From: Naegleria gruberi | Lineage: Eukaryota | Assembly: GCA_000004985.1 (NCBI GenBank) | Contig: GG738896.1 | Strand: one strand, 5' to 3' | Length of the DNA stretch: 64,000 nucleotides | Part shown: in pieces, positions 19,820 to 46,373 of the stretch | How the letters are laid out: each line of letters opens with the position of its first letter | How positions within the stretch are numbered: position 1 is the stretch's first letter | Translations under genes and position numbers: made by a program | Notes under the pieces: generated by a model | Database searches by the model: none | What the model was told of the DNA's origin: nothing | What the model saw: only the letters and a program-made list of their open reading frames with translations

Positions 19820-20014
19820 GTAAGTTTTAAAGAAGGATTTTCTTGTTATTAATCGGACTTTATGGTTTTTCCCTCCAAAATTTATGATTGTCTTGACAAT
19901 GAATTTGAAAAAATGTGTTGATATTAATTTTATTTGGCTTGCTATCATTGGATTTTCTCTGATCATGTGAACAATATGATGATAAATAATAATATTACTT
20001 TCGGAATGGTATAG

Positions 20015-23000
20015 AAATCATTTAAAAATCCAGTTTCATATCCAACACCTGGATGGCAATTATTATATTTCCAAGGATTTAATTGCCCAAAGAATGGAGT
20101 TCCTGAAGGAATTAGTGATCGTAGTTATGGACAATTGCGTGTTGGATATAATCACATTATTGCTTTTCAAGTGAAAAGTAATAATGGAACACAAAAATTA
20201 AATATTGTAGGAAAAGGTGATAATACAGTTGGTCAATTAGCTATTGATAGATATATTTCTGGTGGAGTCAGATATTTTGCCAATATTACATTTGAAATTA
20301 ACTGGGGAGAGATGGTTAGATTAGTACAAATTGAAGATTTAATAACATCAAGAACTATTGCAAATAATCAAGATGTTGCTAAACTTCAAACTTATGATGC
20401 TTGGGATTCTAATCTTTATTTTGATAATATTAAGGGACACTATTTCCCTGATAATATTATTATTCAAGATATTAATACTTGTTATTTAAATACTTTTATA
20501 ATTTTAAAGAATCAAGAAATTTATGGAACTGGTTCAAATATTTACAAAAGTTTAAGTTTATCAAACGAAAATAGCAAAAGTAACTCTCCTATAAGATTAA
20601 CAATTTTGGAAAATTTTTTAAAATCACAAAGTGATTGGATTGATCAACTTTATTGTGGTTATTCATCTGTTTTTATTAAAACAAAAGCTAATAGAATTAT
20701 TGTATTTGGTAGAAATGATGTAAATCAATTAGGTCTTGGATCTGAATTTAGAGCAAATTCAATTACTCCAACAATTCATCCATTTTTAACATATTATTCA
20801 CAAAATATTGCAAATCTTGATACTATTTCATTTGGTTTAAATTTTACTTTAATTTCATTCAAAGATGGTTCAGTTTATTGTGCTGGTTTAAATAATCACC
20901 ATCAATGTGGTCTTGGTATTAATGAATATACAATTTCAAATTTTGTTCAAGTACCAATACCAGAAAAGATTACAAAAATATCAACAACAGCATATGCATC
21001 ATTTTTTGGTATTGAAACTGGTGAAATATTATCTTCAGGATGGAATTTAGGTTTTATTTTAGGACAAAATATTACTGATGAAAATTATGTTTCATCTACT
21101 CCAGTTAAAATTGAAAATTTAATTTCTCCAAATGATTATCAACTTTCAAAAGGTTTTCAATTATTTCATATAACTTATCAAAATGCAACATCAACTATGG
21201 CATGGGGATCAAATCAATTTTATAGTTCTGGTATACTTTATCAGGGTACTGGAACAGCTGCTTATCCAACTATTTTAGCATTGGGCAATGTGGAACGTGC
21301 TGTTTTAGAATCTATTGCAAATCCATCTGAATGTATTTTAGTTGGTGGTCATGCTGCTGCTAATGGTTGTTCCAATAGTTTATTACAAAGAATTAATTTA
21401 AAAACAGGATTTAATACTACATTTGGTGAATTTCGTTCATATTGCAGTAATTTTGGTACTTTTAATTATTCTACAGAAGTTTGTTCATGTGATGAAAAAC
21501 ATTATGGATATTCATGTCATTTAATCAAACCAGAATTTTTAGGAAATTGTAACCAATCAAGTTTAGAAAATTTTGCTATTGCTCCAAATACATGTTATTG
21601 TGGTGGAGAAGGTTTTTATGGAACATCTTGTGAAAATAAGGCACCTCCTAGATCTGTTTACAGTTTTACTAGATCTTTAAATATTCAAAAATTTACTCTA
21701 AAAAATAAGATGTTTGATTTTGGTTATTTAATAAGTGGTCAATCACATACATTTTTAAAATCTCAATTGAATAATAATAGAGTTTATGTATTTGGTAATG
21801 GATTGAATACAAATGATAAATATGGAATTGGTTTGGCTAGTAATAATATGATAAGTGATACTATTCAAATTTCAACATTATTTGAAAGATTATCAAAGAA
21901 ATTAACTTCTTCAATAAGAAATATTTATCCAATGAAAATTCAATCAGTTGCATTATTTAGTAATGGAGATATTTATAAGACTTTAAATAATTCAGATTTT
22001 GAAATTATTGCAAGTAATGTTAAATATTTAACATGTTCAGATATTACATGTTTTTTTATTACTAATGATAAGAATGTTTATGGTATTTTTGATAATCAAT
22101 ATAATCAACTTGGTTTAACTGATTTTGCAACAAGACAAAAAGTTTATGAATCTCAACCTGTTTTAGTATCACTTTTAAATAATAATTATCATAAGGAGAT
22201 TGTTAATATTTATCCTTCAAATTATTTTACATTATTTGTTAATCAATTTGGTAATTTATTTGGTATTGGTAAAAATACAGAATATCAATTAGGTATTGGA
22301 CATAATTTAAATATTGATAAGTTTATTATTCCATTAATAATTGAAAAACCTGTTTCACATGTTATTGTTACAGAATCTATTACATATTTTAAAGAATTAA
22401 ATTCTGTTTGGAAAACAATGGGTAAAGATATTTTAAATATTGCTCCAATTTCTCAATATTTAATTTATCCAACAGTAATAACATCTTTACAAGAACAAGA
22501 AAATATTTATAGAGCTAAAGGTGATATTATTATTACTCAAACAACAACTAAATTTAGACAATTAACACTTAATCAAGACCTTTCATATGGTCAAGAAAAA
22601 ATTATTGATGTTAATATTATGGGAGATGATATTATTTTAGTTACAATTCCAAGTAATTTTAATTCTATACTTTGTTATAATGGTTATTTAGATATTACTG
22701 GTACTTCATGCATTTGTGATAAAGGTTTTAGAGGAATTGATTGTAATTCTTATTTATGTGATAGAGTAACATGTAATTCATGTATTGGACCAAATATATG
22801 TTCTAAAAATCAATCTACAACAACAAATGAATTGAGATTATTCTCAAAAAATTATGGAATGATACAATCAAAGTTTAATGTTAAACATCATACTATTGGT
22901 GATAATTTTGCTATATTTATAGATTATGATGGTGAAACTAAATTTATTGGTGATAATTTTTATGGTGAATTAGGAATGGGTGGTTATTCTTCAATTAGTA

Positions 23001-26000
23001 TTAGTACCTCAAATTTACAACTTTTAACAAATAATATTTTACTTTTACCAATTTATTTAGCTAATGAAAATGTTAAATCAATTACATCTGGCAATAATTT
23101 TATTATTGTTTTAACAGAATCAGGTAATTTATTCTCTGTTGGTGATAATAGATTTGGTCAATTAGGTCAAAATGATACTATTAGTAGATATTTTTTAACT
23201 AAAATAGAAAGTACAATAACTTTTACAAGTGTAACTTGTAATTCTTTTCATTGTATTGCCTTAGGATCAAACAACAAATATTATGGTTGGGGAGATAACA
23301 CATTTGGTCAATTATGTTTAGATTCAACAACTAAAAAGGTTGTTTACACACCTTCACAAATTATATTTGATGTTATTATAGATGTTGTATCTACTTCAAT
23401 TATGTCAATTGGTCAAAACTCTTCAATATTTTATAGTAATAGTGGAGATGTGATTGCTTGTGGTAAAATAACAGTACCATCAAATTATGCTGATAAATCA
23501 GTAAGACAAAGAGTTTTACCAAATTTCAATATTGATTTACAAGCTATGGAACAAATACCAAGAAAATTCTATACCGATTTATGTTTAAAAAATTCTAATG
23601 AAGAATATTACTGTTTAGGTGAAAACAAATTTGGTACTCTAGGTTTTGGTCATGCTTTACCTCTTTATGGAATTTTTTTATCAAAACATTTTGGTGTTGA
23701 TGGAGGATTATTTTTCCATACTCACACTAATAAGATTAATTTCTATTATTCTAAAAACAAAATTTTAAATTATTTTGGTAATGGTGATTTATTGAATGAT
23801 ATCAACAATATGAATCCAGCAAGACAAACAAATGTTTTTCAATCAATTGGTAAATTTAGTTTCATAACATCAAATGAGAAATTTGGTTATATAATTACAA
23901 ATACTAGCAATTGTTTTAATAGAGGATATTTTTCTAATGGAATTTGTACTTGTAATAATATTAAATATTTAGGTGATGAATGTCAAACAAATACTAACAT
24001 TCCACAAGGTACAACTTCTCAATTCCAAATAATTGATACTTTAGGTAATAATTTTAATTTTACTAATAAGTTTGGAAGTATGTCAAAAATTGAAACATTT
24101 GGTAATTTACCATTTGGTTTTAATAATACTAGAAATAATTTAAGAGTTGTTAGTACCTTTAATTTGGCATTAAATCAATCCACTTCTCAACTTGCACTCA
24201 TTTTTGCTATTGATAATTATGCTAATTTAAACGTTGACATTCAATTTCCAAATAGTGGGAAAATTAGTAAACTTCAAACAAGATTGGAGGAAGGATCTGA
24301 TTACATTTATCATACAATTACTACTGATAATATAGATACTAATGCAATTATTCAAGTAACATATACAACAAATAATTCAGTAATTTTAGATAGTGATATG
24401 AAGAACCAATTTCTTAAAGTTTATACAAGAAATGAAAAAAATAATATTATTCCTATTGGATTGAAATCTAGCTCTGAATTATTATCTGAAGTACTTGCAA
24501 GGTTGAATTTCCTTTTTTCTATTAATGGTCCACATACTGCAGAAATTTCCTCTATTGAAGAATTTCCATGTGATCTAGATGGTAATAATAATGTGATAGG
24601 TCTCAGATTAGATGGAAATTTTTTCAATTATACATTTTATCCAATTCTAAAAGATGAATCTTTCCGTACTTTAAAGAACTTTTACAGCTCAAAAATTTCA
24701 TCAATTAGATATCCTATTCATGAAACATTTAATTTTGCAGAAAGTGATATTAGTCTCATTAATTTATCTAATAATAATAATCTTGAACAATCTGCAGGTT
24801 ATTATGATTTATCACCAGTTAAAAGAACAAATATTTTAATTAATGTTTCAAAATCAAAGATTTGTGATATTCCATTTGCTGATTTATTTATTAATCCTTC
24901 TAAATATAATTTTACAAATACTAATATGTATTGTATGAAACCAATTTTTGATAATTCTTGGTGTAAACCATTAAGTTTTAGAGAAAGTACTTTATACTTG
25001 ACTCAATTTTTTGTTTCTACAAAATTAAGTATTCCACTTGCACTTTGTGACTCATGTTCTATTTTAAATTGTTTTGATTTTTTAACTCAAAATACTTCTA
25101 GATTATCCTATTATTTTGTTTACCCAGATAATAATAAGATTATTTCTAATAATTTTAATATATTTGAAACAAGAAAGGATGTAAATGTTGATTTATTATT
25201 CAATGAATTTAATGAAAATAATTTCCTTAATTTTGATTATATTAATATGGGTATTATTTATAAATATGATTCTCCTATTGGAATACAAGAATTAAAAGGA
25301 ACTATCAAATTACAATATTTGAAATATTTACAAAGTTTCAATTTTACACCTATTGTACTTGCTAGAAATAGTGATAATATTGTTACAATTAAAAGTGAAA
25401 ATATGAAAGATTTCATAAAATATAATCAAGTTTATTGTAAAACAAGAATTAGTGAAGAAATAATTACTTTGGATGACAATGATAAATCAACTTCCTATTG
25501 TAATATTAGAACTGGTATTGAATATAATCAAAATATAACAGTTCAATTAATGGCTTACCCTATATCAGGAAATAATCCTTTTAAAATTGGAGAATTTAAT
25601 GTTTATGTTTTAAATATAACACTTATTCCAAATATTATCAATAAGTATTCTACAAAATATCCACAATTAATATTTATTAATTCTGATTTTACAACAGGAA
25701 GCTTTTTATCAAATTCTAAATTAGAATTTATGGAAAATGGTGAAACTGTTTATAAGATTGATCAACTAAAAATTAGTTATTTCAATACTTTATCCATTAC
25801 TGCAGATATTTATAAACAAAATCTTGACATGTATTTAGATAATGTAAATTTAGGATATTTTACTTCTCAAATTGTTTATAAACAAGTCAATTTAGAAAAA
25901 ATTATTCCATCCTTAAGTTTTAATACTGAAGAGATGCCTACAATTTATTTAGATAGAGAAATTTATTCAAATATTCATTCAAATATTCAGTATAGATGTT

Positions 26001-29000
26001 TAGATACTTTAACAAATACTTCATATTCTGCTCAATACTTAAATTCTAGAATAATATGTAATATTAATAATTTACCTACAAATAATGTAAAATTATTAGA
26101 TTTAATTGTTCAAATAAGAATTTATTCATTTAATGATAATGAATGGTTTACATATAGTAGTAATAGTGTTAAGTTTTATCATTTAATTTCTAATATGAAT
26201 ATTTCTTTAGCAGAAGGATCACAAACCTTTTCAAAATGTCATTATTTATCTTCTAGTACAACAGGTTTCACTCCAAGAATTAAATTAAATGAAATTGTTT
26301 TACCTGAAAGTGAAACTTATAGATTTTCAATATGCCATTATAATAGGTTAAATGAAATTGTTACCTATAGATCTAATTATTATAGAGATAATTTATTTGA
26401 AGCATCAGGATTTACTTTATATCTTAAAAGTGGTTATTCTAATATTTATTTATGTGCTGACTCAATGATTGTATCAAAACCAGTTGTAGTTTTTGTTATT
26501 AATCAAACAGATTATGATTCCAAACCAATTTTTGGTTTTATTGGTTCTGATATTTGGTCTGGTTATATTTTCCATCATCAACCACTTTATTCTGATTCTC
26601 TCTTCAATTTAACCTATTCTTGTGCCTTATTTGGTGATGTTCAAAATTATACTGTTTATTCAACAGATTTAATTACAAACAAAATTGATAATTATTATGT
26701 AACAAGATGTATTTTCACTGGTTTAAATAATATTATCAAACAAGAGGCAGGTTTTTATTTTTCATTACTTGCAAAGAGAGGATCAGAAACTGTTCAATTA
26801 CCAGCTACTTTTATTAATTTCATTTATGGACCAAAACCTACAAATTATTCTACTCCATTTATTTCTCATATTCCATATTCTGGTTATATTTCAACAACTT
26901 TATTAACACAAGATCAGGATAGAGATTTATTTGTTTCTAAAAATCAAAATGGATTTTTTAGATTAACTCTCCCAATTGATTGTTTGTTATTTAAAGTTGG
27001 TGGTACTTATCCTATTGCATCTGCACCACTTGATACAACATCATCAACTCTAAAATGTGATTTAACTAAATATACAGTTACAAGCAGTGAACCATTCGAA
27101 ATATCATTAGGTTCACTTGTTACAGAATATTCTTATTTTGTAGAATTTACATCAAGAACTGTACATTTCACATATTTGAATAAGATAGAATTTAACTTTG
27201 AAGGCTATCCAATTTTAGAAACTGGAAAATCTATTCTTCTAAATTATTATACTAACAAACTTCCTCAATACAAACAAACCCAATTGAATGTTACTATGTC
27301 TGCATTAGGACAATACCCCATTATCAAGTCATGTGATTTTGAACTTACAGGATCTTGTATAGTAGATTATAATTTAACAATTCCAATTACTCCAGTTTTA
27401 CAAACTTACATACTTCAATTTTCATTTATTATTAATGAATTTTTATTGAAACAAACATTGAACATTGAAAATACATTGTTCAATAACAGATTTAATGTAA
27501 TGTACTATTCACCATTCCTCTTTGATTTTAAAACTGATTCAAGCATTTACAATTTCAAGTTACAAATTGATAATGGATTAAATCCTGATTTCAATTTTGA
27601 TCTTGATACTGATGGTATTAGAAGAAGCATTTTTTATGGTTTGAATAATGATAGTATAACAGAAGTTACTTGCTCTAGAATTAGTAATTATAGTACTAGT
27701 ATAGCATCTAATTTAGAAACAAGAATTGTATCAACATTTAAAGGAATTACATTTTCTGTTGATAAGAAACCATCAACTATTTACCTTAGAGAACTTTACA
27801 CTACACCAAATATTGTCTCTCAATCAATTCAAAAAACTATTAATATTACTCTTACTACAGATATTGCTATTCAAAAACCTCTAAAGAAGTATTATATTTC
27901 TTTATTAGATAATAAGTATGAATGTAGTATTGAATCAACATCTTTGATTTGTCCTGTTTTAATTACATATATTGGTAATCCTTTCTACAAGGAAGTTCTT
28001 AAAATTTTAGATGGTGATAATGTTGTAACAAGGATTGGTTTACCATTTATCCTATTCAAACCAATTTCTATTCGTGAAGTTAAACCAACACTTCTACTTC
28101 AAGATAATAACTCTGTTAATACTACAGTTTTAATGGAGCAAACAGTTTTTGAAGATTTAGGAACAGAATTTATATTTTCTTGTTCCATCGAAGATGGTAA
28201 CTTCTCAGCTATTGTTGGTGATTCTAACTCTGTTAGATGTAATTTCAATAACTTGAATACTGGAAGAAAGAGTGTAAAAATTTATCTTTCCTCTAATAAT
28301 CAATACAGATCCATCAAGGAATTATTATTAACTGATATTAATCCAGCAAAAGATTTTGAAGTTATTAAGAATCCAACCATAGCTCTTGATAATTCTATTG
28401 AGCAAAAAACTTTATTCTATACTTCTGAAACCTTTTCATTAACAACTCTTAATATTCTAGTTACAAATACTGAATTCACTTTGAATAATATCTTGTATAA
28501 CATTTCTACTGAAATTGGTTTTTATGGAAAAAACAGCTTTGTTGAAAGTACTACTTATTTGGGAAAATTTGATACATCATACAAATTCCAAGTATCATTT
28601 TATGCTTCAAATAACTATGAAGGATTTGTTCCTCTGAGATTAACAAAAGTTTTATCAGGAACTACTAAAGAATCTAGAGCTCTTACTTCTGATGATTACA
28701 TTTTAACAAAGATATCTGATTTGGTTCTAACTTGTGTAACAAAGGTAACTTTATCAAAGAGTGTTCCAGCATTTGGTGTTGAATCTAATTTACCAAGATT
28801 AGTTCAATTATATTCAAACTTTAACTTTTTAAAATTTATTCCTGATTCTAATCTTTTACAAGATGGAAAGGTTAATTTTAAGTGTGTTTATGAATATTTA
28901 CCAAAATCTAATAAGGCAATTAGTAGCACTACTAGAATTTATAATAACGAAGCATTCGAATGTAATATGACAACACCAGATGTTGGTCAAGTTCAAATTG

Positions 29001-41414: not shown

Positions 41415-44042
41415 ATGATAGTAACAATATATCAATTTCTAATCAAAATTAAATTGAAGAATTGGCATCGAGAAGTAAAACAAGCCTTTAAAAAAATGAG
41501 AAGAGGAATTAACACACTTTCCAAACTTTCTTCGAAGAGTTTGACAAGACAACAATCTTTGATTGCTAGATTTTTGGTGGAGCAATGTAGAATGTTTTCT
41601 TCATCGGGAGTGAAACTCTCAGAAGGTATTACAACAACACCATACCTTCCGAGAGCATCAATTGAAGAGCAATTTTTCAAAGTTTTTGCTAAAAAGAAGG
41701 ATTTGCCTGAAAGTACTGATGATGGAAAGGTTGTTGCACCAGCTGAGAAATTATCTGGAGTTTTGATTTTAGGACCAAAAGGATCTGGAAAGACAACGTT
41801 TTTAAGCAAAACGATTAGAAAAGTTAGAGAACAAGATAGTAATATTTTGGAAAACGATGGTGTACACACCATAGTAATTGATTTGGGAAGTATCAAATCA
41901 TGGATTCAAACATATTCTACAACAAACAAATTCCAAAAAGCATCAAGCATTTATTTAATTAACACTCTTACAAATCAATTGGAAAAAGAATACGAAAGAT
42001 TTAAGAAGAAACATGAAATTATGTTAAAGAATGAAAAAGTTGAACCAAGTACTACTGTCACATCATCAAATCAAGAGCAAAAACCAATAGAAAATGAACT
42101 CACCACCACAGAAGAGGAAGAGCATCACGAGACTGGACTGAAGGCTGTTGTTCAAGTTCTTGAAGCTTGGGTTGAATATTTACAAGAAGTGAGAAATGTT
42201 CAAGAAGAACTCTCAGAAAAGGATATTTCCGTAGCTCTTGCCAAGTTCATGAATTTATTAGCTCAAAATTCCTTCTCAAAGACTGTTATTTTCTGTGATG
42301 ATTACCAAGAAATGTTTGAACATCCACAAACAAATAAGGCCTATTTTACCATGTTCCCATTCATTGAAATTTTGAAACTCCCAGATAATATTGAATTCGT
42401 TTACGCTTGCGAAGAAAAAACAAATCTTTTCAAATATACAAATACATATCGTGGAAAATCGGAAAAGCATAATTTGATTAACTTCGGAAGACTTAGTAAT
42501 GAGGATGTAGACTTATTCTTGGAAAATTATAAGAAAACCAATGAGAATCCTTTATTGGAACATCCAGAAGAAATCAAAAGACTTACCAACAACTTTATCG
42601 GAGACATTGTGCACCTTCTTAATAATTATAGATCATTTGAGGATTACATTAGAGACTCTAAACAAAATTATCAACACAAGTTAGTTAAGTCAATTTTCGA
42701 AGAAAAGCTTGGTAACGTGAGAAAAGTTATAGCTTTCCAAAAGCAAAAGGATCAATTAGAATCAGGAGAATTTGCCAATATCACCATCGAAGACAAACCA
42801 TTTACTATTGGTGATATTACATTTAATAACCAAGAAGAAGTTACCATGTGTATGGATAGCAGTAGACTTAATTTTTACAATAATGCATTCGATTGGTACC
42901 TTTCTAGAAATGATTACTCTGAGAAATACAACTCTTCTCTCATGGAATCAACCTTACTGGATACAAATATTTGGTATAGAATTTCTTCGAAAAATGGAAC
43001 CAAGTACAAGTTCAGAAATTCGATGGCCGAATCTGTTTTCAAGCAAAATTTGGCAAATCACTTGTATGCCACAAAGTTCAACCTTCACTCTACTAGATCA
43101 GAAAGGATAATGTCTTTGTGGTTGGCCAAGACACCTTTCCCAAAGAAGAGAAATGCATTGATTTTGGAACTTCTTGCTCGTCTTTTGGAGGATCAATCCC
43201 AAATTATTGGAAAAGTAGAATATAGAGCTGGTAAGAAGCTAGAAATTTTGAAAGAAAAATTGAAGCAAAGAATCAAGCCAAAGACTGAAATTGATGCATT
43301 GCTTGAACAAGAGCCAAAGTTAGACATGAAGGGTTTGTCTGTTTGTTTGAATCAACCTAGTCCTCTCATTTCATTCTTCGGTAGAGATCTTTCTGACTTC
43401 TCCAAGGGGTCTCTGATATCTATTAAGCCTGGATCACCTCCATTCAATGTAAATATTCATGAGGTTTCTTCAGACAGTCAAGTTGCCGAAGCTCTCAAAT
43501 CCATTTGTGAAAAAGACTTATTGGATGACATTCATATTGTTTATCCAAAGTATAGTTTGTATAATGACATTGATGTTGTCATTGCAACAAAGGGTGAATC
43601 TGGTCTCGATGTATTTACAATAAGAATTGTTGAAGGAAATGGATTTGGTAAGAAACCAGTTGACTTCCAAGATACTTCCAATGTTAAGAATTATATTTCT
43701 GTTGTCAATAGTTTGAAATCAAATAATTTTGAATCTGTGAATCATCATTTTGCTCTCTTTGCTTTGGAAAAGACTCACACCAACGTAAAGAATTACAAAC
43801 TGTACATTCCAGAAGATTTGGCATCATTATTGCCTAAAGTAACAATCTCATATGTGGAAGATTACTTTACAGAAGATACTGAAAGAATTTCGCAATACTC
43901 CGAATATCTTCAACAATTAGAGGAAGAACTCAAACAAGAGGAGAATGATGAATTGAACTTTGGTGATACTAATACTGTTGAAGCAATGATGTCCCAAATG
44001 GGTCACAAGAATTTGCCATGGTACGATAAGGTTGACATGTAA
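41415..44042 (+). CDS. uncharacterised P-loop NTPase with a presequence-like N-terminus
   Basis: 875-aa ORF. Walker A LILGPKGSGKTTFLSKT. The likely true start is Met at about 41497 (MRRGINTLSKLSSKSLTRQQ...). Confidence 0.5.
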   Translation: MIVTIYQFLIKIKLKNWHREVKQAFKKMRRGINTLSKLSSKSLTRQQSLIARFLVEQCRMFSSSGVKLSEGITTTPYLPRASIEEQFFKVFAKKKDLPESTDDGKVVAPAEKLSGVLILGPKGSGKTTFLSKTIRKVREQDSNILENDGVHTIVIDLGSIKSWIQTYSTTNKFQKASSIYLINTLTNQLEKEYERFKKKHEIMLKNEKVEPSTTVTSSNQEQKPIENELTTTEEEEHHETGLKAVVQVLEAWVEYLQEVRNVQEELSEKDISVALAKFMNLLAQNSFSKTVIFCDDYQEMFEHPQTNKAYFTMFPFIEILKLPDNIEFVYACEEKTNLFKYTNTYRGKSEKHNLINFGRLSNEDVDLFLENYKKTNENPLLEHPEEIKRLTNNFIGDIVHLLNNYRSFEDYIRDSKQNYQHKLVKSIFEEKLGNVRKVIAFQKQKDQLESGEFANITIEDKPFTIGDITFNNQEEVTMCMDSSRLNFYNNAFDWYLSRNDYSEKYNSSLMESTLLDTNIWYRISSKNGTKYKFRNSMAESVFKQNLANHLYATKFNLHSTRSERIMSLWLAKTPFPKKRNALILELLARLLEDQSQIIGKVEYRAGKKLEILKEKLKQRIKPKTEIDALLEQEPKLDMKGLSVCLNQPSPLISFFGRDLSDFSKGSLISIKPGSPPFNVNIHEVSSDSQVAEALKSICEKDLLDDIHIVYPKYSLYNDIDVVIATKGESGLDVFTIRIVEGNGFGKKPVDFQDTSNVKNYISVVNSLKSNNFESVNHHFALFALEKTHTNVKNYKLYIPEDLASLLPKVTISYVEDYFTEDTERISQYSEYLQQLEEELKQEENDELNFGDTNTVEAMMSQMGHKNLPWYDKVDM

Positions 44043-44362: not shown

Positions 44363-44370
44363 TATATAAG
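44363..44370 (+). promoter_or_regulatory. TATA-like element (TATATAAG) about 55 bp upstream of the glucokinase ATG
   Basis: Sequence agTATATAAGcc seen directly at this position. Confidence 0.3.
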
Positions 44371-44422: not shown

Positions 44423-45864
44423 TTGAAAATGATTTCATCATCAAGTAGAGGAAGTTTGAGTAGTGTTAGTAGCAATGATACTACACATCAACCATTTGTT
44501 GTGGATGAGGACTTTTTAAAGGATATTGAAAAGCATTATAGTAAATCATTGAAGAGTAAATCTTTCCAATATATTGTTGGTGTTGATGTAGGTGCAACTA
44601 ATACAAGAATTGCCATCCAATTTATTGTTAATGATGAGGATGATGAAGTATTCATGACTAAATTCCCATGTAATACTGCTACCAACTTGGCAGAACATCT
44701 TACATTTTATGGTAAAGCTTTGGTTAAAATTGTTAAACAAGGAAGTGCTGCTGGTACTATTGCTCTTGCAGGTCCAGTTACTGGAGAAAAGGTTAGAATT
44801 ACAAACTACAAGGAAAATGATCAGGAATTTTACTATTCTCAACTCACTGATACTCTCTTCCCTGCTCATAAGAATACCTTGTTGAATGATCTTGAAGCCA
44901 GTTGTTATGGTATTATTAATGTTGGCACCAATAATCGTCTCCATGAATTCTTCTGTCCATATGATAGTGCTAATAATTTTGCAACACCACAAACAGTAAG
45001 ACTTTCCGATACTAGTGAATGTGAGTAGTAGTTTAATCTCAATTATTATTGAATCATTAATTTATTCATTAGATGCTGTTTTGGCTATGGGAACTGGTTT
45101 GGGAACTGGATTGATTGTTGGAGCTTCTGGAGGTAAATTTAATGTTATTCCATTGGAAGCTGGTCACGTTCATGTTGCTACTCCTGGTACTAATTCATGT
45201 GATTTCCACGAAGATCGTGAAAGAATTGAATTCCTTAGTCAAAAGATTTATAGTGGTATTTACCCAATTGAATATGAGGATATTTGTAGTGGAAGAGGTT
45301 TGGAATATTGTTATGAATTTGAAATTAGAAATATTCCCAATGCTCAAAGAAAGAATGCTGCTCAAAGTATGTGTTTATTATTATCAATTTTTGTAATAAT
45401 TTAATTATGAATATTTTTTAAAAGTTGCTGAATCTTACTCAACTGATGTACATTCAAGAGATGCCATGATTACACACTATCGTTACTTGATGCAAGCTGC
45501 TCAAAATATTGCTATTTTGATTCCAACTTGTCGTGGTGTCTTCCTTGCTGGTGACAATCAAGTATACAATGAAGATTTCTTTAAGGAACACATTAATATC
45601 CTCCAAAAGGAACTCTTCATAACTCACCAAAAGAAAAACTGGTTGACAGACTTGAAACCATACAGACAAATGAAGGAATATAACTTTAATGTTAAGGGTT
45701 GTCTTCAAAAGGCTAAGGAACTAGCCCATCTTGATGTTACTCATGTCACTACCAATACCTCTCCAGCTAAGAACAGCTTTAAGGATGCTCTTTCTGTTGT
45801 TATACCAGCTGCCTTCTTCTCTGTACTTTCCTTCTTCACTGCTAAGAATATGTATGAAAAGTAA
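44423..45864 (+). CDS. GLK: bacterial-type glucokinase (Glk family); join(44423..45020,45073..45366,45425..45864)
   Basis: N-terminal ATP-binding motif [15 protein letters not shown] (compare bacterial Glk LVGDIGGTNARFAL), [20 protein letters not shown] and C-terminal GVFLAGDN. Introns with GTGAGT..CATTAG and GTATGT..AAAAG. Total 1332 nt, in frame. Confidence 0.85.
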
Positions 45865-45866
45865 AT

Positions 45867-46373
45867 CTATTTTACACTTTTTTCTGACTCGGATTTCTCA
45901 GCTTCTTGTTCATCTATCGTCTTGATTAGTAAGGACCTATCATGTTCAAAGAGAAGCACCAAAAGCACTGTTCTTCCAAGGCAATACAGAACACCAAGCA
46001 CAAATATCACTAAAAACATAGCAAAAGCCACAAAGAAACCAGTGGATGTAGTAAAAACAAAGGAATCATCAGTCTTGATTATCTTTGCTGCCTTCTCTGT
46101 AACTCTCTGCCAAACATGAAGCACTAGGAAAACTATGGAACCAATCAGAGAAATTAATGATATAAATACAGAAAAGCCAATATGCGCAAAGAAGTTTTTC
46201 CTCTCTCTCTTGATCTTATCCAAAGTATGCTCTTCTTGAATTTCATAATCATCAACTTCCTCAATTTCCACCGGGGCTAAACTACCCTTCCTTCCTCTAT
46301 TTCCAACTTTAATTTCTATTACATCATTTGATGAGTCTTGAGAGGAACGCACCATTGAGATTTTCTTCGTCAT
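45867..46373 (-). CDS. hypothetical 2-TM membrane protein
   Basis: 168-aa ORF with two hydrophobic helices (FSVFISLISLIGSIVFLVL; FFVAFAMFLVIFVLGVLYCL). Confidence 0.3.
   Translation of the reverse strand: MTKKISMVRSSQDSSNDVIEIKVGNRGRKGSLAPVEIEEVDDYEIQEEHTLDKIKRERKNFFAHIGFSVFISLISLIGSIVFLVLHVWQRVTEKAAKIIKTDDSFVFTTSTGFFVAFAMFLVIFVLGVLYCLGRTVLLVLLFEHDRSLLIKTIDEQEAEKSESEKSVK

Follow-up and report, generated by a model that had tools for sequence, protein, structure and literature searches.

The closest described relative of the gene considered here is the glucokinase of Naegleria fowleri (NfGlck; 6DA0; Milanes et al. 2019, 10.1101/469072), a monomeric, adenosine triphosphate (ATP)-dependent and mainly glucose-specific enzyme with Km values of 42.5 uM for glucose and 141.6 uM for ATP (10.1101/469072). 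A crystal structure of NfGlck at 2.2 A and inhibitor screens have been published (10.1101/469072; PMC10644346), and the enzyme, encoded by the one Glck gene of a genome that contains no hexokinase, is the only recognisable glucose-phosphorylating enzyme of that genome (10.1101/469072). Structures of the same subfamily and fold have been solved for Acanthamoeba (8DTC), Balamuthia (6VZZ), Trypanosoma cruzi (2Q2R) and Leishmania (6EDI), and the 'bacterial-like' character of the family in protists has been discussed since 2001. Here, a stretch of 64,000 nucleotides (nt) from contig GG738896.1 of Naegleria gruberi was analysed, hereafter referred to as the window. There is very little doubt that positions 44429-45864 on the plus strand constitute the nuclear gene for the N. 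gruberi ATP-dependent group A glucokinase, XP_002672587.1. The protein is 81% identical to NfGlck and, on the evidence presented below, is a member of a eukaryote-wide subfamily within the otherwise mostly bacterial Glk family.

The locus is covered by three mechanical open reading frames (ORFs) in different frames (44423-45028, 45015-45404 and 45466-45864), across which gene models were built by brute-force joining of GT..AG pairs. Four splice models kept the frame open. The one with introns of 52 and 58 nt (45021-45072, donor GTGAGT, and 45367-45424, donor GTATGT) runs from the ATG at 44429 to a TAA ending at 45864 and gives a product of 441 amino acids (aa); the 58/58, 58/52 and 52/52 nt combinations were rejected because only the 52/58 model reproduces both the annotated protein and the ortholog junctions SDTSE/Y/AVLAMG and AAQ/I/AESY. 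The spliced product matches EFC39843.1 / XP_002672587.1 / UniProt D2VTD5 (D2VTD5_NAEGR), 'glucokinase [Naegleria gruberi]', residue-for-residue over its full length; the two-intron structure is thus already annotated, and its recovery is correct but ordinary. The features of the gene are as follows, in order along the plus strand.

44363..44370 (+): TATA-like octamer TATATAAG, 58 nt before the ATG at 44429; function unsupported.
44429..45020 (+): exon 1, aa 1-197 and the first base of the Tyr198 codon; contains the Ser-rich variable N-terminus, the DxGxTN phosphate-binding motif (44579-44614) and the catalytic Asn153-Asp154 (LNDLE, 44882-44896).
45021..45072 (+): intron 1, 52 nt, GTGAGT...TTAG, phase 1 within the Tyr198 codon, with an in-frame stop at 45026-45028.
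45073..45366 (+): exon 2, with GTGLGTG (45090-45110), the glucose-binding E226/H229/H231 (EAGHVH, from 45156) and E266 (45270-45299).
45367..45424 (+): intron 2, 58 nt, GTATGT...AAAG, phase 1 within the Ile296 codon, in which the read-through frame stops at 45404.
45425..45864 (+): exon 3, with the GVFLAGD adenosine motif (45535-45555), the last core helix, the variable linker (aa 396-416), the C-terminal tail and the stop codon TAA (45862-45864).
45787..45861 (+): candidate tail-anchor transmembrane segment, a hydrophobic helix of aa 417-435 followed by KNMYEK.

The original prediction placed the beginning of the gene at 44423, where a TTG opens the first mechanical ORF; the true start codon is the ATG at 44429, and the rest of the predicted span stands. 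Positions 44423-44431 read TTGAAAATG (TTG AAA ATG) in N. gruberi, which does not have the MPER- extension. At the corresponding site, N. fowleri (L002:2989-3003) and N. lovaniensis (the equivalent position in L003) carry an in-frame ATG four codons upstream (ATGCCCGAGAGAATG, MPER-MISSS), which is used by UniProt (441 aa) and not by RefSeq (437/438 aa). The lack of this upstream ATG in TTGAAAATG argues for the downstream ATG as the conserved start.

Both introns contain in-frame stops, the exon-1 frame ending at 45028 and the exon-2 frame at 45404, and splicing is therefore obligatory; an unspliced message would give a truncated protein devoid of GTGLGTG and the later motifs. For comparison, the corresponding loci of N. 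fowleri (L002), N. lovaniensis (L003) and Willaertia magna (L001) were each searched for the pair of introns whose removal yields the annotated protein. Across the four species, intron 1 falls after the first base of the same Tyr codon and intron 2 after the first base of the same Ile codon, at the junctions given above. The lengths of intron 1 are 52, 98, 130 and 67 nt and those of intron 2 are 58, 59, 62 and 60 nt in N. gruberi, N. fowleri, N. lovaniensis and Willaertia, respectively. The intron interiors diverge in both sequence and length among the four species and the flanking exons are highly conserved. Together with the shared codons and phase, this identifies them as genuine spliceosomal introns that predate the Naegleria/Willaertia split. 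Removal of the GT..AG segments restores the frame, the positions are kept in the orthologs and the intron sequences have drifted, as in a nuclear gene with spliceosomal introns. The two canonical introns of 52 and 58 nt put forward in the original prediction are thus exact, and the primary transcript would have to lose two short phase-1 introns of this kind before translation.

In a Pfam scan, the protein gave a single match, to Glucokinase PF02685 (E 2.3e-27, 96.3 bits against a cut-off of 22.1, residues 53-338), with no match to the hexokinase domains PF00349 and PF03727 at E values up to 1. Membership of the ROK family, faintly flagged in some homologs, was rejected, as the same scan returned no ROK match. 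Among solved structures, a sequence search ranked N. fowleri 6DA0 first (E 4.8e-237), followed by 8DTC, 6VZZ, the T. cruzi glucokinase chains and 6EDI, with E. coli Glk (E 1.8e-3) behind the amoebozoan and kinetoplastid enzymes; the names Acanthamoeba, Balamuthia and Leishmania for 8DTC, 6VZZ and 6EDI are those of the Foldseek output. An AlphaFold2 model (mean predicted local distance difference test score, pLDDT, 87; predicted template-modelling score, pTM, 0.83) retrieved, in order, 6DA0, Balamuthia 6VZZ, Acanthamoeba 8DTC, T. cruzi, Leishmania 6EDI, E. coli Glk, ROK kinases and then human hexokinases. The template-modelling (TM) scores on the target of 0.94 for 6DA0 and 0.83 for E. coli Glk are consistent with a predicted two-domain Glk fold; human glucokinase and hexokinase 2 appeared at rank 46 or lower, with a root-mean-square deviation (rmsd) of ~14 A. 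The Glk family is the only Pfam match and leads both the structure and the fold searches, which bears out the earlier assignment of the gene to this family rather than to the eukaryotic hexokinases.

The active-site residues agree with this assignment. All four motifs on which the family call had been based were found at their expected places: the DxGxTN motif at aa 51-62 (44579-44614), in which the N. gruberi residues are D53-V-G-A-T57-N58, GTGLGTG at aa 204-210 (45090-45110), EAGHV at aa 226-230 (45156-45170) and GVFLAGD at aa 333-339 (45535-45555). Residues N99, D100, E157, H160 and E187 of E. coli Glk, which bind glucose in the E. coli structure, align to N153, D154, E226, H229 and E266. 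In an alignment of 58 sequences, the DxGxTN loop and four catalytic or sugar-binding columns are invariant or nearly so, and the E187 column holds Glu in 49 sequences and Asp in 9.

The N. gruberi protein shares with NfGlck (441 or 437 aa, by choice of start) both intron positions, the upstream neighbouring gene, the active-site residues including His231 and the C-terminal tail, and its predicted fold superposes on the N. fowleri structure with an rmsd of 2.0 A. The N. fowleri gene differs in the length of intron 1 (98 nt as compared with 52), in the extra upstream ATG (MPER-) and in the linker at aa 396-416, which is ~29% identical between the two species. The amoebozoan and kinetoplastid enzymes (8DTC, 6VZZ, 2Q2R and 6EDI) have TM scores of 0.73-0.86 on the target and keep the catalytic residues, with 21-31% identity to the N. 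gruberi protein in structural alignments; the crystallised chains are of 391-412 aa against 441. E. coli Glk (1Q18/1SZ2; TIGR00749) belongs to the same Pfam family and has the same core fold and sugar-binding and catalytic residues; it differs in its structural-alignment identity of ~21-22% and in its length of 321 aa, without the N-terminal extension of ~45 aa, the internal insertions and the C-terminal linker and tail. Eukaryotic hexokinases (PF00349/PF03727), including human glucokinase (hexokinase IV), catalyse the same reaction and share the actin-ATPase superfold at long range, the human enzymes reaching a Foldseek TM of ~0.48 against the N. gruberi model at an rmsd of ~14 A. The identity between NfGlck and human glucokinase is 25% (10.1101/469072).

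The gene had been proposed to be a long-domesticated acquisition from bacteria. Long nuclear residence is borne out by the conserved introns, the synteny within Naegleria and the host-like base composition; horizontal acquisition is not. A scan of prokaryotic genomes, one per species for 185,579 species, was carried out with the single motif [VA]D[VI]G[AG]TNTR[VIL], and its best matches were 23-28% identical to the N. gruberi protein in a bacterial sample that the single motif biased towards Rhodobacterales. A search of 5.8 billion proteins returned N. fowleri at 81%, Willaertia at 67% and then many metagenomic, EukProt transcriptome and Pelomyxa sequences at 35-44%. All relatives closer than the prokaryotic matches were eukaryotic or eukaryote-like, and three unnamed hits located on longer contigs had eukaryotic neighbours (SF1, DNA polymerase lambda with BRCT, F-box, eukaryotic-type MutS, EMP70 and RING). 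A neighbour-joining tree was built from 58 sequences and 313 columns using Kimura-corrected distances and 200 bootstraps, with the root set arbitrarily on E. coli and with sampling that left out cyanobacteria, archaea, diplomonads and oomycetes. In this tree, the named eukaryotes, the EukProt sequences, those with eukaryotic context and the other unnamed metagenomic relatives form one clan with a bootstrap of 100 and no bacteria inside. Naegleria and Willaertia (bootstrap 100) are sister (bootstrap 100) to a group that includes P0008, from EukProt, and P0009, which has eukaryotic context, and the bacterial sister group of the whole clan consists of P0075 and a gammaproteobacterial metagenome-assembled genome (bootstrap 78). 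In the published N. gruberi proteome table, the best outside BLAST match is a protein of the parabasalid Tritrichomonas foetus (PMC8134430), and a study of oomycete glucokinases described their origin as ancient and no longer tractable (PMC8879444). The gene belongs to an old and widespread eukaryotic Glk subfamily that occurs in Heterolobosea and Amoebozoa and, to judge from the solved structures, also in Kinetoplastida; vahlkampfiids have had it from the common ancestor of Naegleria and Willaertia or earlier.

A bacterial transfer specifically into the Naegleria or heterolobosean lineage might be suggested by the predominantly bacterial membership of PF02685, most eukaryotes using hexokinase instead (PMC1665464), and by the patchy distribution of Glk across eukaryotes (PMC8879444). 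Such an event is nevertheless highly improbable, given that the best prokaryotic identity of 23-28% falls below the 35-44% of eukaryotic relatives, several of which have plainly eukaryotic contig neighbours, that Naegleria and Willaertia lie deep inside a eukaryote-only clan, that the amoebozoan and kinetoplastid structures are nearer than E. coli Glk, and that introns, synteny and base composition are host-like. No bacterium is interleaved with Naegleria and Willaertia among the 58 sequences of the tree, and neither a recent nor a lineage-specific transfer from bacteria is demonstrated; a simple tree and a biased bacterial sample set a limit on the transfer claim and are not proof of vertical descent. 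The chance that the locus is a bacterial contaminant, or a pseudogene to which introns were wrongly assigned, is negligible. Nothing speaks for it beyond the family being mostly bacterial: the window is uniformly of 23-36% G+C, the gene lies between conserved Naegleria neighbours, and the reading is refuted by the match of the spliced product to the annotated protein, by the intron positions common to four species and by the detection of the protein at 78.5% peptide coverage. [quoted passage not shown] We consider the chances of this to be about even. A single well-supported eukaryotic clan adjoining bacterial sequences speaks for it, and it is in keeping with the presence of the subfamily in Heterolobosea, Amoebozoa and Kinetoplastida (from named hits and structures), with the parabasalid match in the PMC8134430 table, and with the like verdict, 'ancient, no longer tractable', reached for oomycetes (PMC8879444). 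It is held back by the nature of the tree (neighbour-joining, 313 columns, an arbitrary E. coli root), by a bacterial sample shaped by one motif with the four groups named above left out, and by the bootstrap of 78 for the bacterial sister group; the tree does not resolve the direction or the timing of transfer. Whichever its remote source, membership of an old eukaryotic subfamily is the reading adopted here for the N. gruberi gene.

The protein is expressed. In the proteomic study of Horváthová et al. 2021, the entry for XP_002672587.1 in Supplementary Data 2 lists 27 unique peptides and 78.5% coverage (PMC8134430). Since the 81%-identical N. fowleri enzyme has been characterised, the function of the N. 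gruberi gene can be inferred with high confidence; ATP-dependent glucose phosphorylation, catalytic activity and kinetics would be expected to follow those of the ortholog. By analogy with N. fowleri, the enzyme is probably also the sole glucose-phosphorylating enzyme of the cell. Some points weigh against taking the gene as a spliced, bacterial-type glucokinase with this cellular role. The score against the NCBIfam bacterial glk equivalog (TIGR00749 / PRK00292) is 68.4 bits, against a cut-off of 225.45, and the protein likewise falls far short of the cut-offs of the remaining bacterial glk models; it is a divergent member of the subfamily and not a close copy of the bacterial enzyme. The support for splicing is comparative and proteomic in kind. 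No enzyme activity of the N. gruberi protein itself is reported in the literature searched, and its suggested status as sole hexose kinase is drawn from the N. fowleri analogy.

A further feature of the N. gruberi protein lies at its C-terminus. Residues 417-435 contain its most hydrophobic 18-residue stretch (Kyte-Doolittle mean 2.03) and are followed by only 6 residues, and the maximum hydropathy of the N-terminal 60 aa is 0.48. The tail is 77-84% identical across the four species, like the catalytic core (72-85%), and the preceding linker of 21-26 residues is 23-33% identical. AlphaFold2 predicts a disordered linker followed by an isolated helix at 415-440, and residues 401-443 of the N. 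fowleri crystal 6DA0, which include the equivalent tail, are disordered and invisible. As judged from hydropathy and the predicted fold, this fits the arrangement expected of a tail-anchored protein, one hydrophobic segment of ~18-22 residues within ~30 residues of the C-terminus, with neither signal nor anchor at the N-terminus. XP_002672587.1 is also present on Sheet 1, 'putative mitochondrial proteome', of the N. gruberi proteome tables, a cluster that co-fractionates with mitochondrial markers; in the rows for these proteins, the log2 label-free quantification (LFQ) values towards the densest fraction of the gradient are 28.4/28.7/29.4 for glucokinase against 30.2/31.6/33.1 for porin (PMC8134430).

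It is tentatively proposed, at somewhat under even chances, that the glucokinase of Naegleria and Willaertia is held in a membrane by a tail anchor, with aa 417-435 tethering the first glycolytic enzyme to the surface of an organelle. The mitochondrial outer membrane would be the likeliest site because of the listing of the protein in the mitochondria-co-fractionating set, as given on that sheet (PMC8134430). The enrichment of glucokinase in those rows is modest and weaker than that of porin (PMC8134430), and the mitochondrial listing may instead reflect contamination or a location on several membranes. Peroxisomal targeting, to which the MultiLoc value 'P89' in the same table entry and the peroxisomal targeting signal type 1 (PTS1) of sister-group relatives might point, was rejected, as the protein ends in -YEK and is placed in the mitochondrial and not the peroxisomal cluster (PMC8134430). 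PTS1-like ends (-SKL/-AKL) were observed in the eukaryotic-clan homologs P0005, P0009, P0025 and P0067-P0074, the first three of which belong to the Naegleria sister group. Transmembrane-like segments occur at the N-terminus of P0006, P0033, P0046, P0049 and P0056, and by eye in the alignment also in P0004, P0028 and P0036, and P0008 has a hydrophobic stretch at its C-terminus. The varied targeting appendages within the clan suggest that organelle association of glucokinase is recurrent in protists. In mammals, a hydrophobic helix at one end of the chain fastens hexokinases I and II to the outer membrane of mitochondria. That anchor is N-terminal and the candidate anchor of N. gruberi is C-terminal; the likeness would be one of functional analogy. 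Organelle tethering may thus be a recurrent theme of the Glk subfamily, with interchangeable appendages, and a convergent analogue of the mitochondrial docking of hexokinase I/II. Kinetoplastid and diplonemid glucokinases are PTS1-bearing and glycosomal (PMC9512073). No literature linking NfGlck to mitochondria or describing a tail-anchored glucokinase was found in the library searched. The published enzymology and inhibitor work consulted used soluble recombinant protein, and the tail is apparently undiscussed in the NfGlck reports among it; a conserved tail-anchor-like C-terminus may be new.

The original prediction had also pointed to a TATA-like element upstream of the gene. The string TATATAAG is indeed present at 44363-44370; a promoter role for it is not supported. 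It occurs once in the window against 3.65 copies expected from dinucleotide shuffles, and for the looser TATAWAW the window has 64 copies, fewer than the 113 expected. No counterpart of TATATAAG was found upstream of the N. fowleri, N. lovaniensis and Willaertia orthologs, and the upstream regions of the four species barely align, their sole conserved block being the start-codon context.

The window as a whole is AT-rich, with a G+C content of 23-36% per 2 kb, and the segment at 44-46 kb (33.4%) is like its surroundings; positions 20001-28000 are markedly AT-richer (G+C 0.23-0.27 as compared with ~0.33 elsewhere in the window). Upstream of the glucokinase gene, positions 41415-44042 (+) hold an intronless ORF of 875 aa with weak P-loop/STAND-NTPase-like Pfam hits (AAA_16, E 9e-5). 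The corresponding place is taken by a gene of 889 aa in N. fowleri and by one of 899 aa in N. lovaniensis, and the locus is therefore syntenic within Naegleria. On the other side, the glucokinase stop (45862-45864) is 2 nt away from the stop of a convergent minus-strand ORF (45867-46373) of 168 aa, which gives only weak Pfam hits and is hydrophobic over a long part of its second half; if this ORF is a real gene, the 3' untranslated regions of both must overlap. In N. fowleri, a minus-strand gene of 145 aa lies ~265 nt downstream of glucokinase.

N. gruberi is not known to be a pathogen. The gene had been suggested as a potential drug target should the organism be a pathogen, an idea that is right in principle and already published for the N. 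fowleri ortholog (10.1101/469072; PMC10644346). Glucokinase has likewise been pursued in the literature as a target in Acanthamoeba and Balamuthia. The N. gruberi gene matters chiefly as the non-pathogenic model counterpart of NfGlck, an active drug-discovery target in the lethal (brain-eating) N. fowleri. Its annotation and the structure, kinetics and inhibitors of its ortholog were already known; what is corrected here is the reading of the gene as a sign of bacterial transfer that can be traced, and the gene is placed instead in an old, eukaryote-wide Glk subfamily. Should the native enzyme prove to be membrane-bound, this would bear on the access of inhibitors and on the organisation of glycolysis in these amoebae.

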